Part shown: positions 3,432 to 12,362 of the stretch, piece after piece
Layout: each line of letters opens with the position of its first letter
How positions within the stretch are numbered: the first letter of the stretch is position 1
Assembly (NCBI RefSeq): GCF_030013595.1
Contig: NZ_CP122768.1
From: Escherichia coli
GTDB taxonomy: Bacteria; Pseudomonadota; Gammaproteobacteria; Enterobacterales; Enterobacteriaceae
Direction: 5' to 3' (one strand)
DNA: 64,000 nucleotides
Program-made: the position numbers and the translations under genes
The notes under the pieces: generated by a model
Seen by the model: only the letters and a program-made list of their open reading frames with translations
Told to the model about the DNA's origin: nothing
The model's database searches: none

Positions 3432-3692
3432 TTATTCTTCTGCAAAAGCAGAAAATCCAGCCTTAAGACCAATCTCTTTCAGAACCTGTAATGATGTTAC
3501 AAATTCATCTTCACGCAAAATAAAACCGTCCGTCATAAGCTCATCAACAAAATAAATTAACACAGCTCCGCTCTTCCTTTGTTGAGATTGCAAACATTTA
3601 ATTCGGCAGTGACTGGCTATAACTCCATTCTCAACGCGTACAGCATAGAGGCCATTTTCACTAAAAATTTCACAAAATTCTTCGATTTTCAT
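3432..3692 (-). CDS. hypothetical protein, 86 aa
   Basis: ORF with AAGGA Shine-Dalgarno upstream of the ATG; lies downstream of the 9-bp repeat tract. Confidence 0.45.
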   Translation of the reverse strand: MKIEEFCEIFSENGLYAVRVENGVIASHCRIKCLQSQQRKSGAVLIYFVDELMTDGFILREDEFVTSLQVLKEIGLKAGFSAFAEE

Positions 3693-3834: not shown

Positions 3835-3933
3835 ACAAACAATACAAACAATACAAACAATACAAACAATACAAACAATACAAACAATACAAACAATACA
3901 AACAATACAAACAATACAAACAATACAAACAAT
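3835..3933. repeat. perfect tandem repeat (ACAAACAAT) x 11
   Basis: eleven identical 9-bp units read directly in the sequence; preceded by an A/C-only tract from about 3801. Confidence 0.95.
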
Positions 3934-4010
3934 ACAGGCGCATCGATAATTAATTAACTTATCGGGTTACAAGGTAATATAACTTCAGTTAAAATTATTA
4001 ATCTCTTATT

Positions 4011-4108: not shown

Positions 4109-4264
4109 TTACTCCTCAGGTTCGTAAGCTGTGAAGACAGCGACCTCCGTCTGGCCGGTTCGGATTCGTACCTCGCAGAGGTCTTTCCTCGTTACCAGTG
4201 CCGTCACTATGACGGTTAAACAGATGACGATCAGGGCGATTAACATCGCCTTTTGCTGCTTCAT
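4109..4264 (-). CDS. hokD: Hok/Gef-family type I toxin (HokD/RelF-like), 51 aa
   Basis: hand translation gives MKQQKAMLIALIVICLTVIVTALVTRKDLCEVRIRTGQTEVAVFTAYEPEE; below the 60-aa cutoff of the ORF track. Confidence 0.85.
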   Translation of the reverse strand: MKQQKAMLIALIVICLTVIVTALVTRKDLCEVRIRTGQTEVAVFTAYEPEE

Positions 4265-4474
4265 AGCCTGCTTCTCCTTGACCTTTCGGTCCGTAAGAGG
4301 CTAATCTCTATGTGTCGCATAGATATGGCCTCAGATTAATGTTAAGCGTCTTGCAGGACGCGTAATGTTAACTGGGGCTTTTCTCTATCTGCCTTTTGGT
4401 GTTCATGCCTGAGGCAGATAGCCTCAAGCACCCGCAGCAATTCTACTTAACTCTCCTTTTCCCGCAAACCGTTT

Positions 4475-7671: not shown

Positions 7672-8214
7672 TCAAACAAAACCTGCCGCTTTCCTGCGTT
7701 CATATTCCTGTTTCAGCAACTCAATTGGAGTTGGCCCCGACGGGCGTTCTGGTGCTGCCAGTTGCCTACGGACGGGTGGAACACTCAGTCCGTTACCAAC
7801 ATGCTTTGCCCATTTCGCTAGTTGCCGTTCTGCAAGCCGTTTTAACTCCCCTTCGGTCATCTGGCGCTCAATCCCCTTTGAACGCAGCTCGAGACAAATG
7901 TGATACAGCACAGGCTGAGACCACGGGTATTTATCGCTTCCGTCGTATCGCCAGGACTCGTTGCGCCAGCGTCGGTACTCCTCCATCACGTTATCCACCG
8001 TCAGACCAAATGGATTTGCCCCGCTCTCCGAAATCAGCGCCACAAACTCAGCCAGGTCCGGAGGCCATGTTTCACCCGCCCGGCAGCGGTCCATGCACTG
8101 GCGGCAGACCTGCCGGATTTGCTGCTCAGTCATCGCGCCAATCTGTGCAATCCAGAGCTTCGAAGGTGCGGCCCCGTTCTTCTGGGTCCAGCGGTTCGAA
8201 TAAACCTCCCCCAT
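7672..8214 (-). CDS. replication protein P-like (helicase loader), start uncertain
   Basis: C-terminal half resembles lambda P (…YPW…ELKRLAERQLAKW…); the ORF extends to 8337 but that overlaps the O-like gene. Confidence 0.6.
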   Translation of the reverse strand: MGEVYSNRWTQKNGAAPSKLWIAQIGAMTEQQIRQVCRQCMDRCRAGETWPPDLAEFVALISESGANPFGLTVDNVMEEYRRWRNESWRYDGSDKYPWSQPVLYHICLELRSKGIERQMTEGELKRLAERQLAKWAKHVGNGLSVPPVRRQLAAPERPSGPTPIELLKQEYERRKAAGFV

Positions 8215-9166
8215 GAGTTCCCACAGCTTCCAGGCCGTTTCCGTCGCTGATAAATCCGTTTTCACGTTCCCACTGCTCACGTGCTGCCCGAATTTCCTGA
8301 ACTGCCCGTGATGCGGTGCCACCTGGTGCTGCTGCATGGTTTACCCCCTTGCTGACTGGTTTAACCTGTGCCCTGACGTGATTTACGTGACGGGCGAATT
8401 TCTGCTCCCACTGAACCTGCGTGAACACTTTGCCCTCATCGCTCCAGTAATCCCGGAATGCGGCAAGTTCAGCAGGTGTAAATTCCGGCTCCGGCAAAGC
8501 CATCCCCCACAACGCAGCCCGTCGTCGAAAATCCCGTGACGGATGCCAGCTATCGGTCATCGGAAATTTTCCGATGGGTTCGCTCAGGCCATCCAGGAAT
8601 ACGGGTGGCACTGCCTGTAACGACAAAACTTCCTGCTCACTGGTCGGAGCACTCTCGCGTGCGTTATGTGTGGGGTTTAGATCTTTGGGTTCCTTTGGGT
8701 TCCGTGATCCGTTTTTGGGTGTCTTTGATGGAAAATTTGGGTGTCTTTGGTTATTTTCCATGCAGCTAAGAGTTCCGTTTTTGGGTCTGTTTTGTGCTGA
8801 AACATAACCATTTTCGGTACTGTTTTTATTAACAGTACCAATTTTACCCACCTTTAAAGACTCCCGTTTTTGGGTGTATTCAGGCTCGGCAACACTTTCT
8901 TCTACACCGATAAGTCGGTACACCACAATTTGCTTTGTTCTGCCTTTTCTCTCACCGGTATCAACAATTAACCCAATCTCCATCAGGTGTCGTAAGCTGT
9001 CCTGCACAGTCTTTTTGTTCAGTTCCGTTACTTCTGCCAGTGCAGATACAGACGGGTATGCACACAAATCGGCACCGCACATATCAGCAAGCCAGGTCAA
9101 TACTGACTTACTGGATGAACTGCCGGTTTTCACCTTTTTAGCCCATCGTAGTGCATCGATACTCAT
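8126..9166 (-). CDS. replication initiator O-like protein
   Basis: N-terminal helix-turn-helix replisome-organiser region; iteron repeats embedded mid-gene as in lambda O. Confidence 0.65.
   Translation of the reverse strand: MSIDALRWAKKVKTGSSSSKSVLTWLADMCGADLCAYPSVSALAEVTELNKKTVQDSLRHLMEIGLIVDTGERKGRTKQIVVYRLIGVEESVAEPEYTQKRESLKVGKIGTVNKNSTENGYVSAQNRPKNGTLSCMENNQRHPNFPSKTPKNGSRNPKEPKDLNPTHNARESAPTSEQEVLSLQAVPPVFLDGLSEPIGKFPMTDSWHPSRDFRRRAALWGMALPEPEFTPAELAAFRDYWSDEGKVFTQVQWEQKFARHVNHVRAQVKPVSKGVNHAAAPGGTASRAVQEIRAAREQWERENGFISDGNGLEAVGTHGGGLFEPLDPEERGRTFEALDCTDWRDD
8684..8879. repeat. iteron-type replication origin within the O-like gene
   Basis: at least four copies of CCGTTTTTGGGTGTC-like units (8709, 8736, 8775, 8863), TTTGGGTTCC direct repeats, and an AT-rich palindrome GGTACTGTTTTTATTAACAGTACC. 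Confidence 0.65.
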
Positions 9167-9689
9167 ACGAACCCCTGGCAGACATTTGTTTATCTGCAAA
9201 GTAATATTGGTATTGCTGACGATACGCGTGCTTGAAAGCAATAGCTTTTTCTATAAGCTCGTCAGTCTCACGTTCCACAACAGCTGGATCCGCAAAAAGC
9301 AGCCCGGACTCCACCACATCGCCATATTCTTTGTTTAACCCGGCGATCATGTACGTAATGCTTTTTCCGTCAGTAATTTCACAATACAACCTGAAATCGC
9401 TGATCCGGATAGCCTCCATAATTGCCGGAATCAGCGCCGTGAATTTTTCCCGCTTATCCCTGGTGTCGATAGCTTTCCAGCGTTCGAATATCTTCACCCG
9501 GTTAACGCCCAGCGCCCGTTGATCAACCGCGCCATCATCAAACGTGACGCGTTGAACATCGATGTTCGGGCGTTCTTTCAGAGCCCAGAAGGCTTCCGTG
9601 ATTAATATCGTCGCCTGCTCCTGTGTCATTCCTGGTCGGCACACCCAGGCATCCAGAGCCTCACAAACCTGTTCAGGGGTGATTTTCAT
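9138..9689 (-). CDS. early-region protein in the cII position (YdaT-like?), 183 aa
   Basis: ORF between the cro-like gene and the O-like gene; weak recalled resemblance to YdaT-family proteins. Confidence 0.4.
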   Translation of the reverse strand: MKITPEQVCEALDAWVCRPGMTQEQATILITEAFWALKERPNIDVQRVTFDDGAVDQRALGVNRVKIFERWKAIDTRDKREKFTALIPAIMEAIRISDFRLYCEITDGKSITYMIAGLNKEYGDVVESGLLFADPAVVERETDELIEKAIAFKHAYRQQYQYYFADKQMSARGSYEYRCTTMG

Positions 9690-9900
9690 TGTTCAACCGC
9701 CCCGCCCGCTTTGCCTTACGATATTCGTCATAAACTTTGGGGTCGTACTGAAGTTCCCCGCCGGATGCCTCTTGCAGGCGCATCGCGCGACCTTCAGGAA
9801 CCAGTTCCCCCCATGCAGCAATGCTTGCCAGCCTAACTCCTGCGGCATTGGCAAGCTTTGTTTTGCTGCCAAAAAACGCTATAGCATCAATTTTCAACAT
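9673..9900 (-). CDS. dicC: DicC-like (Cro-type) repressor
   Basis: 75-aa protein close to DicC as recalled (…FGSKTKLA…AAG…LVPEGRAMRLQEASGGELQYDPKVYDEY…); divergent from dicA. Confidence 0.75.
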   Translation of the reverse strand: MLKIDAIAFFGSKTKLANAAGVRLASIAAWGELVPEGRAMRLQEASGGELQYDPKVYDEYRKAKRAGRLNNENHP

Positions 9901-9908
9901 ATCGAGCT

Positions 9909-9926
9909 CCTTAGATTTTCCTAAGG
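9909..9926. promoter_or_regulatory. palindromic operator CCTTAGATTTTCCTAAGG in the dicC-dicA intergenic region
   Basis: perfect 18-bp inverted repeat between divergent repressor genes; related CTTAGG half-sites at 9945-9975 and 10457-10509. Confidence 0.5.
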
Positions 9927-9976
9927 AAACTAGATCGTAGAGAAACCTAAGTCAAGAAAAATTAGAATTCCCTAAT

Positions 9977-10384
9977 ATGAAAAACGAAACCTTCGGTGCT
10001 CGCCTCTTACATAGGCGTAAAAAATTAAAACTGTCTCAGGCCGCATTAGGTAAGCTGGTCAAAGTGGCTCACGTAACAATTTCTCAATGGGAAAGAGATG
10101 AAACACAGCCGGCGGGGAAAAGATTATTCGCACTGAGCCAAGCGCTTCAGTGCTCACCGACTTGGCTTCTTTTTGGGGATGAAGATAAACAACCAGGCGA
10201 ACCGATCCCGGATAATCAGCCAGCCATTCTGACAGAAGATCAAAAAGAGTTACTTCAACTGTTCGACGCACTGCCTGAGTCAGAGCAAAAGGCCCTGTTG
10301 TCAGAGATGCGTGCTCGAGTTGAAAATTTCAACAAACTTTTTGAAGAACTACTCAAAGCTCGCAAAAGAAGCGCAAACAAATAA
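9977..10384 (+). CDS. dicA: DicA-like HTH (XRE family) repressor
   Basis: 135-aa protein close to DicA as recalled (…SQWER…FALS…LQCSPTW…FGDEDKQP…NFNKLFEELLKAR…). Confidence 0.8.
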   Translation: MKNETFGARLLHRRKKLKLSQAALGKLVKVAHVTISQWERDETQPAGKRLFALSQALQCSPTWLLFGDEDKQPGEPIPDNQPAILTEDQKELLQLFDALPESEQKALLSEMRARVENFNKLFEELLKARKRSANK

Positions 10385-10586
10385 TCCCCTTTTTTCTCCA
10401 CACCCTGTAATAAAAAGCACAAACTTTCAAACACTTGTGTTTTTTACATCAAAAAACTTAGGTTTTTCTACATAAAAATCTTGACCACCAGCCTTAGGTT
10501 ATTCTAAATTTCATTCATCAAGACACCGCACGGTGTTCTCAGCAAACAGTTCCGCCACCCCGGCGTTAAGGGGAAATGAGGTCAAC

Positions 10587-10739
10587 ATGGATACTATCGA
10601 TCTTGGCAACAACGAATCTCTGGTATACGGCGTGTTTCCCAACCAGGACGGCACATTCACCGCGATGACGTATACCAAAAGCAAAACGTTTAAAACCGAA
10701 ACTGGCGCTCGTCGCTGGTTAGCCAGAAACACTGACTGA
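10587..10739 (+). CDS. ydfA: YdfA-like protein (DUF1391)
   Basis: MDTIDLGNNESLVYGVFPNQDGTFTAMTYTKSKTFKTE… matches YdfA of Qin as recalled; first gene of the dicB operon. Confidence 0.7.
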   Translation: MDTIDLGNNESLVYGVFPNQDGTFTAMTYTKSKTFKTETGARRWLARNTD

Positions 10740-10750
10740 TGAGGCTGACG

Positions 10751-11389
10751 ATGGAATTTAAAGATTTACCAATATCAATACAGGAAATGGCCGCTGATGT
10801 GATTCGCTCGCAACTGGCGCGGAACCCAATGATATTAGTAGATAAAGTGTTCATCAGAAATTTATCAAATCATGTCCGCAATTCTTTTACCGGACTGTAT
10901 TCATATTCGTTCACAAACAATCATTGTGTAGAAAATAAAGCAAAGCCCATTGCAGAAACGATAACGCAAAACATCAATACGAAACAAACCGAAGAAGAAA
11001 TTGACCAGTTTACCCGTGATGCTGGCTTAAAATGCAGGAAAGAAAAATCGCCATATGCGGGAAATATGTTTGTTTATGACAACCTTATCCGAATTCGTGG
11101 CGAAATTCCGACTGAATACCTGGCAAGAATTCACCAGGCATTACTTAAAAATCTGGAAACGGAAGTATTTGATGGCAATACCAACGGCTCCTTCGTGGTG
11201 TCAACTCTCGCAAAAGAGTGGGATACAGATAATCGCTGGAATGTTGCTACATGGTTATTCAGCAACAAAGCTGCTGCCCTGGAAGCTGCGGCCTGTATTT
11301 GCGACCTGCTAAGGACAGACCGCAAATACAACCTGGATGTGTATAGCTATATTTATGCTGAACACTATCCGCTATGGATTAACTGGTAA
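10751..11389 (+). CDS. hypothetical protein, about 212 aa, no recognisable domain
   Basis: AT-rich ORF; GAGG Shine-Dalgarno before the second ATG; occupies the ydfB/ydfC position. Confidence 0.55.
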   Translation: MEFKDLPISIQEMAADVIRSQLARNPMILVDKVFIRNLSNHVRNSFTGLYSYSFTNNHCVENKAKPIAETITQNINTKQTEEEIDQFTRDAGLKCRKEKSPYAGNMFVYDNLIRIRGEIPTEYLARIHQALLKNLETEVFDGNTNGSFVVSTLAKEWDTDNRWNVATWLFSNKAAALEAAACICDLLRTDRKYNLDVYSYIYAEHYPLWINW

Positions 11390-11924: not shown

Positions 11925-11988
11925 CCATGTTGATTACCTTTTGGTGGGTATCCGTTTTTTGTTTTCCCTTGTGATACCCGCCCTTTTT
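11925..11988 (+). ncRNA. dicF: DicF-like small RNA (divergent)
   Basis: upstream of dicB; TTTGGTGGGTATC…GATACCCGCCC hairpin followed by TTTTT resembles the recalled DicF 3' end; boundaries approximate. Confidence 0.4.
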
Positions 11989-12173
11989 AAAGTGAATTTT
12001 GTGATGCGGTGAATGCGGCTCAGCGCACGCGGAACAGTTAAAAAAGTGATCGGTACTCTGTATTTGTTTTATGGAGTTGGTTTCCCTGTATTCCGGCGTT
12101 AATTGTTAACTGGTTAACGTCACCTGGAGGCACCAGGCACCGCATCACAAAATTCATTGTTGAGGACGCGATA

Positions 12174-12362
12174 ATGGAAACGTTATTACCAAACGTCAAT
12201 ACGTCTGAAGGTTGTTTTGAAATTGGTGTCAGAATCAGTAACCCTGTATTTACTGAAGATGCCATTAATAAGAGAAAACACGAACGGGAGCTATTAAATC
12301 AAATATGCATTGTTTCAATGCTGGCCCGTTTACGCCTGATGCAAAAAGGACGCTGCCAATGA
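12174..12362 (+). CDS. dicB: cell-division inhibitor DicB
   Basis: 62-aa protein METLLPNVNTSEGCFEIGV…ICIVSMLARLRLM… close to K-12 DicB as recalled. Confidence 0.85.
   Translation: METLLPNVNTSEGCFEIGVRISNPVFTEDAINKRKHERELLNQICIVSMLARLRLMQKGRCQ

Follow-up and report, generated by a model that had tools for sequence, protein, structure and literature searches.

Which sequences does the DicA-like repressor of an Escherichia coli prophage recognise, do they control both the lysis-lysogeny switch and the dicB operon, and do they give this prophage the immunity of its K-12 relative Qin? These questions arise from a divergent dicC-dicA gene pair found in 64,000 nucleotides of contig NZ_CP122768.1 (the whole stretch analysed, hereafter the window). 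The region very probably controls lysis versus lysogeny in a lambdoid, P22-like prophage and is of the Qin DicA/DicC type, with five sites bound by DicA. It is a predicted heteroimmune allele of the known Qin switch, in which familiar biology is coupled to a different site sequence.

Genes, operator-like sites and promoter elements

The dicC-like (Cro-type) and dicA-like (repressor) genes are divergent, with start codons at 9900 (minus strand) and 9977 (plus strand), and are followed by ydfA, all within positions 9673-10739. The gene names given by the initial annotation are borne out by identities to the K-12 proteins of 62% for DicA, 84% for DicC and 94% for YdfA. The prophage adjoins potC; its gene content includes replication genes, exo, xis and int, and its left end is cut off by the window edge. 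The dicB operon also contains a DicF-homologous region, of which the sRNA body has diverged and yields no Rfam DicF match. No credible match to known RNA families was found at 9850-10650. The possibility that the ydfA leader is a structured RNA was examined and set aside, its single-sequence fold being no better than shuffles (z = 0); RNAalifold on 21 sequences predicts no pairs in it, which is not a clean negative, since the MAFFT alignment mis-registers the first hairpin.

Table 1. Features of the immunity region and related genes (window coordinates; scores are those of the operator matrix)
Feature	Position	Strand	Remarks
rem-like gene, candidate DicA antirepressor	3432..3692	-	69% identity to Rem
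dicC-like gene, Cro analogue	9673..9900	-	75 aa; 84% identity to K-12 DicC; Pfam P22_Cro E=3e-13
Putative operator Oc	9909..9926	.	CCTTAGATTTTCCTAAGG, the "palindrome" of the initial annotation; core 9910-9925 CTTAGATTTTCCTAAG; score 21.2
Predicted dicC promoter -10	9927..9932	-	TAGTTT, read from the sequence; 17 nt from the -35
Putative operator Om	9936..9951	-	CTTAGGTTTCTCTACG (minus strand); score 22.3
dicC promoter -35	9950..9955	-	TTGACT (minus strand)
Putative operator Oa	9961..9976	-	ATTAGAATTCCCTAAT (plus strand); score 17.2, lowest of the five
dicA-like repressor gene	9977..10384	+	135 aa; P22 C2-like HTH domain and two-helix C-terminal domain, without peptidase domain
Probable dicA terminator hairpin	10411..10446	+	12-nt arms, 11 complementary (92%), then U-run; -9.6 kcal/mol, z = -3.9
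Putative operator OB2	10457..10472	+	CTTAGGTTTTTCTACA; just upstream of the ydfA/dicB-operon -35; score 25.3
Predicted leftward early promoter, dicBp analogue	10481..10510	+	-35 TTGACC 10481-10486; 18-nt spacer; -10 TAAATT 10505-10510
Putative operator OB1	10493..10508	+	CTTAGGTTATTCTAAA; score 26.2, best of the window
5' leader of the ydfA-dicB operon	10516..10586	+	conserved across immunity types
ydfA (DUF1391)	10587..10739	+	first gene of the putatively repressed operon
dicB, cell-division inhibitor	12174..12362	+	downstream in the ydfA operon; 89% identity to K-12 DicB

Five related 16-bp sites with the consensus CTTAGGTTTTTCTAAA are present, three in the dicC-dicA spacer and two at the ydfA/dicB-operon promoter (Table 1). 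They share the half-site YTTAGR around an A/T-rich centre and span 16-18 bp. The initial annotation had described one perfect 18-bp palindrome between the divergent genes and CTTAGG half-sites between dicA and ydfA. The 18-bp sequence is indeed there, as Oc, but it is not a perfect palindrome: upon direct reading, complementarity is confined to the two arms of 6 bp, CCTTAG and CTAAGG, and the centre between them (ATTTTC, 6 bp) is not self-complementary. The CTTAGG sequences upstream of ydfA likewise exist, not as half-sites but within full 16-bp sites, CTTAG-N6-CTAca in OB2 and CTTAG-N6-CTAAa in OB1. The inventory becomes three plus two sites, Om and Oa having been overlooked.

All five sites are interwoven with predicted promoter elements. 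Oc begins directly after the predicted dicC -10 and overlies the predicted dicC start site; its right arm contributes part of the dicC ribosome-binding site (CTAAGGAG, minus strand), and its position matches that of the K-12 Oc, for which an overlap with the -10 of the dicC promoter mapped there has been reported (PMC3441716). Hexamers equivalent to this -10 occupy the same position in K-12 (TATCTT) and in the immunity types T3 and T4. Om fills the dicC promoter spacer and reaches over the final 2 nt of the -35. The latter reads AGTCAA on the plus strand in all four immunity types examined and in P22; within the window type, AGTCAA predominates, several diverged loci having AGTAAA and one (L011) AGCCAA. 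Oa adjoins the dicA ATG and includes the predicted dicA -10, TAGAAT (9963-9968, plus strand). As dicA has no Shine-Dalgarno sequence, a leaderless mRNA is expected, as seen for K-12 dicA by dRNA-seq (PMC4681348, Fig. 2A). OB1 overlies the spacer and -10 of the predicted leftward promoter, its right arm doubling as the -10, and the position of this promoter is shared by every immunity type and by P22 PL. Furthermore, Om is 94% complementary to OB2 and Oa 83% complementary to OB1. The -10 assignments are weak consensus matches.

Conservation, covariation and competing readings

A matrix was built from 47 sites of 19 diverged loci, the window being excluded, that share the same helix-turn-helix (HTH) at protein identities of just 64-85%. 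Scanned over about 128,000 positions, it returns the five window sites as its top five (26.2, 25.3, 22.3, 21.2 and 17.2), two of which also score on the opposite strand (15.2, 12.0). The best score outside them is 13.4, and no third operator, of the kind cited for the leftward promoter of K-12, was retained. The best candidate by eye, at 10434-10449 (CTTGTGTTTTTTACAT), fits only with an indel, is not conserved across the diverged loci and overlaps the dicA terminator; the third leftward site cited for K-12 is not convincingly detectable in the K-12 sequence either. Pattern and matrix scans found no DicA sites elsewhere in the window, the rem region and host genes included. Two matches, one at 47140 and one at 47168, were put down to chance; they fall at the 3' end of a host coding region and within it, and by eye the sequence appears to be fabF.

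The sites are retained in the 19 diverged relatives with the same HTH. Three sites lie upstream of dicA in 17/17 diverged loci listed; at the leftward promoter of these loci two sites are recognisable, of which a strict pattern caught just one in 9 loci. Since the spacer from Oc to the dicA ATG is wholly conserved within the type, within-type conservation cannot separate operators from promoter elements. Comparison of the four DicA immunity types and P22 shows site positions that are fixed relative to the -35 TTGACT, the -35 TTGACC and the dicA ATG, while the half-site varies; the leftward -35 has the variants TTGCC in type T3 and TTGACG in T4. Each locus is best fitted by its own operator pattern, with 6, 7, 6, 7 and 4 mismatches on the diagonal of the comparison vs 11-20 off it. 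The five best window sites show 16 mismatches to the P22 pattern and 12 in total to the K-12 pattern, vs 6 to their own, CTTAG-N6-CTAAG; P22 itself shows 4 to its own. The operator sequence varies with the repressor HTH. A 1-bp geometry difference between window-type and P22-type operators was considered and dropped, all types aligning in a 7-4-7 frame. The initial proposal that the same repressor acts at the switch and at the dicB-operon promoter is supported, at the level of sequence, by the shared motif, its positions relative to the promoters, its conservation and this covariation.

One alternative, that such repeats occur by chance in intergenic DNA rich in A and T, draws on the window-wide count: with up to 2 mismatches allowed, CTTAG-N6-CTAAG occurs 14 times, no more often than in shuffles (16 expected). 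However, 5 of these 14 fall inside the 278 bp of the two intergenic spacers (Poisson P ~7e-9). In 20,000 dinucleotide-preserving shuffles of each spacer, at least three sites arose in the first at a frequency of 1e-4, at least two in the second at 1.4e-3, and five in total never. With these composition-matched local shuffles, the top five ranks in an independent matrix, the conservation in diverged loci and the covariation across immunity types all against it, chance is regarded as refuted. It is also very improbable, though slightly less so, that the inverted repeat of Oc is an RNA hairpin of the dicC 5' leader masking the ribosome-binding site (CUAAGGAG) rather than a protein site. Its right arm does overlap the dicC Shine-Dalgarno sequence, but the predicted dicC start, placed from the -10 position, lies inside the left arm, so that the hairpin could not form in the transcript. 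Moreover, the other four sites are in positions senseless for a hairpin, and relatives retain, besides the arms, a directional and non-symmetric spacer.

A more serious reading takes Oc, perhaps with OB1 and OB2, as the sole true DicA site, Om and Oa being mainly DicC/Cro sites or promoter elements that resemble operators through A/T richness and common ancestry. When each K-12 site was assayed alone in vivo, DicA bound Oc but neither Om nor Oa (PMC3441716); in the window, Oa has the lowest score and contains the dicA -10, and part of the dicC promoter (-35 and spacer) lies within Om. Against this, Om and Oa agree with Oc in arms and spacing, Om is nearly an inverted copy of OB2, and both sequences shift with the repressor type while the promoter hexamers stay. 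Moreover, P22 and lambda repressors bind cooperatively as a rule, which assays of isolated sites would not reveal. We consider this restricted set of DicA sites unlikely, and retain the reading in which the repressor would occupy all five.

Relation to Qin, P22 and other repressor systems

Qin of K-12 is the closest characterised relative. It shares the gene order dicC <- -> dicA -> ydfA ... dicB, the repressor length of 135 aa and the C-terminal domain of that repressor, a Rem homologue, three spacer sites and two recognisable sites around the leftward -35 TTGACC at the same positions, the core TTAG-N6-CTAA, and an Oa abutted by the dicA start codon. One study gives the same layout from sequence, with three operators cited per region after Bejar 1988 (PMC10448788). 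In K-12, DicA occupies Oc in vivo, and a single base change abolishes binding (PMC3441716). The promoter dicBp is repressed by DicA, 165-fold-reversibly via Rem (PMC10448788), and the DicA site at dicBp has been rated as low-evidence and of unknown location (PMC7567609).

The two prophages differ in several respects. The window repressor has a diverged HTH, with helix 2 reading SQAALG vs TQRSLA in K-12, and the half-sites are (C/A)CTTAG vs TGTTAG, from which a different immunity is predicted. The sequence marks of the Qin specificity, TGTTAG half-sites with Oc as TTGTTAGTCATAACTAACAA and a helix 2 starting with TQR, are absent from the window prophage, where helix 2 starts with SQA. With site sequences unlike the TGTTAG-N6-CTAACA of K-12 Qin, the prophage is predicted to be heteroimmune to it. 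Besides, the replication genes, exo, xis and int of the window prophage are lost or truncated in Qin, and the DicF equivalent is diverged in the window.

The resemblance to P22 immC extends to the repressor itself. The DicA N-terminal DNA-binding domain is 62-69% identical to that of C2 (E=1e-21; 1ADR/2R1J), and its predicted fold superposes on the C2-operator complexes 3JXB/2R1J with an rmsd of 0.4-0.6 Å and a TM-score of 0.96-0.98. Two DNA-contacting residues of the C2 complex, Val33 and Gln37 (PMC5175364), are conserved in DicA, and DicC belongs to the P22_Cro family. Both regions have three operators, a -35 TTGACT and a last operator abutting the repressor ATG, as well as a leftward -35 (CTTGACC in PL) flanked by two operators 35-36 bp apart; in the 7-4-7 frame, TT at half-site positions 3-4 is common to both. 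In contrast, the P22 consensus is ATTTAAG-N4-CTTAAAT (PMC5175364) and that of the window CCTTAGR-N4-YCTAAGG, and P22 has OL1-3, of which the third has no counterpart found in the window. The similarity to C2 ends at residue 69: where C2 continues into a LexA-like cleavable C-terminal domain, DicA is predicted to end in a short domain of two helices. Among Pfam families, only those of HTH type (HTH_3) match DicA, with no Peptidase_S24 (LexA-like) match.

Lambda CI/Cro offers the same general plan, with divergent repressor and Cro genes, a tripartite operator overlapping PR/PRM, a second operator set at PL and a leaderless repressor mRNA. Its operators and Cro fold, however, have no detectable sequence relation to those of the window, and CI is RecA-cleavable. 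A short HTH repressor with a helical C-terminal domain, controlled by an antirepressor, is instead found in Gifsy GfoR/GfhR and in the SinR-SinI and SPbeta-type repressor-AimX systems. SinR and the phi106/SPbeta repressors have a similar predicted architecture (structure-match ranks 5, 9 and 13), although full-length superpositions are poor (rmsd 9-10 Å) and the C-terminal domains have no sequence relation.

The form of the repressor bears on induction. The initial annotation had linked the state of the sites to prophage inducibility, which is partly right, with the reservation that the repressor has no S24 cleavage domain. As DicA lacks a RecA-cleavable domain, induction would be expected through a Rem-like antirepressor or through lost repressor stability. 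In K-12, derepression is not RecA-based: it involves the small protein Rem as an antirepressor of DicA, heat or urea, and a bistable DicA/DicC flip (PMC10448788). By analogy, the Rem-like ORF at 3432-3692 may act as the antirepressor here. No LexA-type CTGT-N8-ACAG sequence was found near dicA, dicC or rem; the sole perfect match in the window, at 8820-8835, lies inside a replication gene.

Proposed working of the switch and its implications

By analogy with K-12, and in view of the covariation, we infer that DicA occupies these sites and keeps both promoters repressed. The 135-aa protein would act as a dimer, contacting the five sites through its P22 C2-like HTH. As Oc covers the predicted dicC start site and Om the -35 and spacer, the bound repressor would silence dicC together with the early genes transcribed rightward (ydaT, replication). 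The dicC-dicA spacer would be the analogue of OR, in which Oa overlies the -10 and the start of a leaderless dicA transcript; DicC, or excess DicA, on Oa would turn dicA down. The leftward promoter would correspond to OL/PL and to dicBp of K-12. With OB1 on its spacer and -10, and OB2 abutting its -35, the same repressor would silence ydfA, the DicF-like region, dicB, ydfD, exo, xis and int. DicC probably acts as Cro, reading the same sites via the common TTAG...CTAA core.

The immunity types lend themselves to a further, tentative proposal, which we hold to be possible rather than probable: the DicA-type immunity regions of enterobacterial prophages would form a natural allelic series, in which heteroimmunity between the window and K-12 types depends for the most part on a single outer base pair of the operator, recognised by the beginning of helix 2, with cross-talk at the level of DicC. 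The base before TTAG is G in the K-12 and T3 types and never G in the 47 window-type sites. The window type and T3 have the same recognition helix although their operators differ, and the outer base may be read by the start of helix 2 (TQR vs SQA), not by the recognition helix. As the DicC recognition helix, (V/I)RLAS, is common to the window, K-12 and T3 types, the DicC of one prophage could flip the switch of a co-resident prophage that is heteroimmune with respect to DicA. If true, this would mean Cro-level cross-talk in strains with several such prophages.

The region is found in 748 of 5,426 complete E. coli genomes, and is 95% identical to its counterpart in ompW-site prophages recorded with Stx2a-converting phages. 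Little of this is new in principle; a very common class of E. coli prophages retains an intact P22-like switch, which would govern dicB as well as excision and recombination genes. With the 16-bp motif and the five positions, the promoters and operators of dicC, dicA and the dicB operon can be annotated in prophages of this immunity type; the positions help the design of reporters, and the motif makes it possible to predict shared immunity among co-resident DicA-type prophages. The comparison of four immunity types also provides a data set on how the specificity of C2-like repressors changes.

Five putative operators around dicA

At 9909-9926, CCTTAGATTTTCCTAAGG is found where the initial annotation placed a perfect 18-bp palindrome between the dicC-like (Cro analogue) and dicA-like (repressor) genes; the symmetry was overstated, the complementary part being two 6-bp arms in inverted orientation, with 6 bp lacking symmetry between them. 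A search of the 64-kb window for CTTAG-N6-CTAAG with at most two mismatches yields 14 matches against 16 expected, no excess over chance, but five of the 14 fall within the two spacers flanking dicA: the putative operators Oc, Om and Oa (centres 26 and 25 bp apart), and OB2 and OB1 between dicA and ydfA (36 bp apart). The sites proposed earlier between dicA and ydfA are present, but as full sites, not half-sites; that inventory was real, yet missed two of the five. Among 20,000 dinucleotide-preserving shuffles per spacer, at least three sites occur in the 76-bp dicC-dicA spacer with a frequency of 1e-4 and at least two in the 202-bp dicA-ydfA spacer with 1.4e-3, while a total of five never occurs; the observation of sites is therefore real.

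Features of the prophage region, in window coordinates
Feature	Position	Strand	Details
Four tRNA genes	457-763	minus	near Q antiterminator region
rem-like gene	3432-3692		69% identity to Rem
Tandem array	3835-3936		9-bp unit ACAAACAAT, 11.3 perfect copies (100% matches)
sok antitoxin RNA (hok/sok)	4262-4433		in early region
Replication-initiator-like ORF	8126-9241	minus	
LexA-box-like sequence	8820-8835		CTGTTTTTATTAACAG
dicC-like gene	9673-9900	minus	75 aa; 84% identity to K-12 DicC; Pfam P22_Cro match
Oc	9910-9925		dicC-dicA spacer
Predicted dicC promoter	TTGACT 9955-9950; TAGTTT 9932-9927	minus	17 nt between; consensus and positional analogy
Om	9936-9951		dicC-dicA spacer
Oa	9961-9976		dicC-dicA spacer
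-10 TAGAAT	9963-9968		inside Oa
dicA-like gene	9977-10384	plus	135 aa; 62% identity to K-12 DicA
Hairpin and U-run	10411-10446		folding z = -3.9
OB2	10457-10472		dicA-ydfA spacer
Predicted leftward promoter	TTGACC at 10481; TAAATT ending 10510		18 nt between; promoter scan
OB1	10493-10508		dicA-ydfA spacer
ydfA-dicB operon leader	10516-10586		
ydfA	10587-10739		YdfA 94% identical
216-aa ORF	10739-11389		no Pfam match
DicF-homologous stretch	11939-11990		
STnc100 sub-threshold match	11995-12151		34.5 bits (gathering score 47), E=1e-5

The sites coincide with putative promoters, assigned at all three places from consensus matches and positional analogy. Om occupies the spacer and two -35 bases of the predicted dicC promoter, and Oc starts directly after its -10, spanning the expected start site and partly supplying, with its right arm, the dicC ribosome-binding site (CTAAGGAG). 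Oa adjoins the dicA ATG, without a Shine-Dalgarno sequence, and contains a good -10 eight bases upstream of this ATG, for which no recognisable -35 is found. This layout is the signature of a predicted leaderless, activator-dependent repressor transcript, as for lambda PRM. Differential RNA-seq shows that the dicA mRNA of K-12 has no leader (PMC4681348, Fig. 2A). A consensus dicA promoter was not found by Yun et al., who report that DicA activates dicA (PMC3441716). Past the hairpin that is probably the dicA terminator, OB2 lies immediately upstream of the leftward -35, and OB1 overlies the spacer and -10, its right arm CTAAAT being also the -10. Phage P22 (L090) follows the same plan, with OR1-3, an identical TTGACT, OR3 adjoining the c2 ATG, and a PL that has OL1 and OL2, separated by 35 bp, on either side of its CTTGACC.

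Comparison within and between immunity types

A scan of viral contigs gives 80 loci. The window-type helix-turn-helix is found in 70 loci (66 from viral contigs, the window, and its close relatives L002-L004), 19 of which encode DicA proteins 64-85% identical to that of the window; their flanks have diverged, so their hosts are probably other than the window's. The three sites upstream of dicA are kept in 17/17 diverged loci listed; at their leftward promoter two sites are recognisable, of which the strict pattern picks up only one in 9 of the loci. A weight matrix built from 47 distinct sites of the 19 diverged loci only (consensus CTTAGGTTTTTCTAAA, 19.4 bits) ranks the window sites 1-5 of ~128,000 positions, with scores of 26.2, 25.3, 22.3, 21.2, and 17.2, the highest score elsewhere being 13.4. 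One limit applies: a single immunity type keeps all of the sequence between Oc and the dicA ATG, and within-type conservation therefore has no power to separate operators from promoters.

Comparison between types does separate them. It covers K-12 Qin (L001), L002-L004, and the T3 (L005, L006, L008) and T4 (L007, L009) types from E. coli genomes, with spacers aligned by anchoring on the -35 hexamers. Site positions are common to all types, and half-sites are type-specific. For every locus scored against each pattern, the best match is its own: summed over five sites, mismatches number 6, 7, 6, 7, and 4 to own patterns and 11-20 to foreign ones. Phage mEp460_ev081 is probably of T4 type, its coverage (40%) and identity (92.8%) equalling those of the T4 genome hit H9.

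Half-sites by immunity type
Type	Pattern	Half-site (P22-style 7-4-7 frame)
Window	CTTAG-N6-CTAAG	CCTTAGR
K-12 and T3	GTTAG-N6-CTAAC	TGTTAGY
T4	TTGAG-N4-CTCAA	TATTGAG
P22	TTAAG-N4-CTTAA	ATTTAAG

The T3 immunity region of E. coli prophages has the look of a recombinant. Its recognition helix is almost that of the window type, as is the right half of the spacer between dicC and dicA (CCTAAGTCAAG to the dicA ATG); helix 2, Oc, and the sites at the leftward promoter resemble those of K-12, and the middle operator retains just one window-type half-site. In L004 (E. coli RM9975, window type), dicC is frameshifted with dicA and all five sites intact, which would keep the switch permanently repressed.

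Repressor, Cro, and specificity

Residues 2-69 of DicA match the N-terminal domain of P22 C2 (1ADR, 2R1J, 3JXB; E=1e-21), and the AlphaFold2 model (pLDDT 87) superposes on C2-operator complexes within 0.4-0.6 Å. The proteins of the window, K-12, and T3 all retain Val33 and Gln37, two residues that touch DNA in the C2 complex (PMC5175364). Pfam matches are restricted to helix-turn-helix families; residues 87-133 are predicted as two helices, and neither Pfam search nor structure prediction reveals an S24 peptidase domain.

Half-sites aligned in the 7-4-7 frame have TT at positions 3-4 in all types. T3 DicA shares the recognition helix VAHVTISQWE with the window and its helix-2 start (TQR, not SQA) with K-12, and its sites are GTTAG, K-12-like. 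Because of this combination, and since G precedes TTAG in 0/47 window-type sites, we infer that the window and K-12/T3 immunities may be set apart by the start of helix 2 together with the outer base pair, in agreement with what the N-terminus of helix 2 does in 434 repressor. Window, T3, and K-12 DicC have a common recognition helix, (V/I)RLAS, and the operators of these types a common core, TTAG...CTAA; T4 DicC resembles P22 Cro (..AAVSQW), and T4 sites are P22-like.

Prophage setting and relation to K-12 Qin

The window from 1 to ~16520 is a lambdoid prophage early region (Q, rem-like, hok/sok, O/P-like replication genes, ydaT, dicC, dicA, ydfA, dicB, ydfD, exonuclease, xis, int), and the prophage runs past the left edge; host genes on its right (potC, potD, cobB, nagK, lolCDE, and others) show up to 99.9% identity to E. 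coli. The dicC-dicA-ydfA region reaches at least 80% coverage in 748 of 5,426 complete E. coli genomes, and is 95% identical to the matching region of ompW-site prophages recorded with Stx2a-converting phages.

Several neighbouring elements deserve mention. The tandem array lies between the rem-like ORF and hok/sok, ~140 bp upstream of the former, and could be a length-variable element acting on rem expression. The window has a single perfect CTGT-N8-ACAG, the LexA-box-like sequence. It is located within the replication-initiator-like ORF and may be part of an A/T-rich origin region instead of serving SOS control. The operon leader is nearly invariant over four DicA immunity types and recognisable in diverged loci even with a different downstream gene; kept in it are the blocks CATCRAA..CACNGCACRGTG..CTCAG..AACGTTCCGC, a short GC hairpin, and AAGGG. 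Some paired changes in the GC stem, seen by eye (CGCC/GGCG, CGCT/AGCG, AGCCAG/CTGGCT), suggest a putative nut- or put-like antitermination element; the leader has no Rfam match and a single-sequence fold z of 0, and RNAalifold, run on an alignment in poor register, gives no consensus pairing. Immediately 3' of ydfA, the 216-aa ORF takes the place of K-12 ydfB/ydfC in the repressed operon. The DicF-homologous stretch keeps the flanks and terminator tail around a diverged sRNA body, without an Rfam DicF match even at E<=1, and the prophage may have a DicF variant acting on other targets, or none. The STnc100 match lies just upstream of dicB.

In Qin, Bejar et al. 1988, as cited in PMC10448788, used the analogy with lambdoid immunity regions to place three operator-like sequences in the spacer between dicA and dicC and at dicBp. 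K-12 Oc (TTGTTAGTCATAACTAACAA) is bound by DicA in vivo, a single base change abolishing binding, and isolated Om and Oa are not bound; DicA represses dicC and activates dicA (PMC3441716). It also represses dicBp, with Rem as antirepressor; derepression, RecA-independent, occurs spontaneously in ~1% of cells and upon heat or urea (PMC10448788). For dicBp, the DicA site is still rated low-evidence, location unknown (PMC7567609).

The main proposal of the initial annotation, one repressor for the switch and the dicB-operon promoter, is supported. Very probably, the five sites serve the DicA-like repressor as operators, which it shares with DicC, and they are arranged as an OR of three and an OL of two. 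No description of the operator sequence of this allele was found in the literature; the system itself is known, and the region is a routine variant of it, an allele predicted to be heteroimmune. The suggested link to inducibility holds in part: repressor, Cro, operators, and rem-like gene all look intact, but the late region lies outside the window, and induction in the DicA class proceeds without repressor cleavage.
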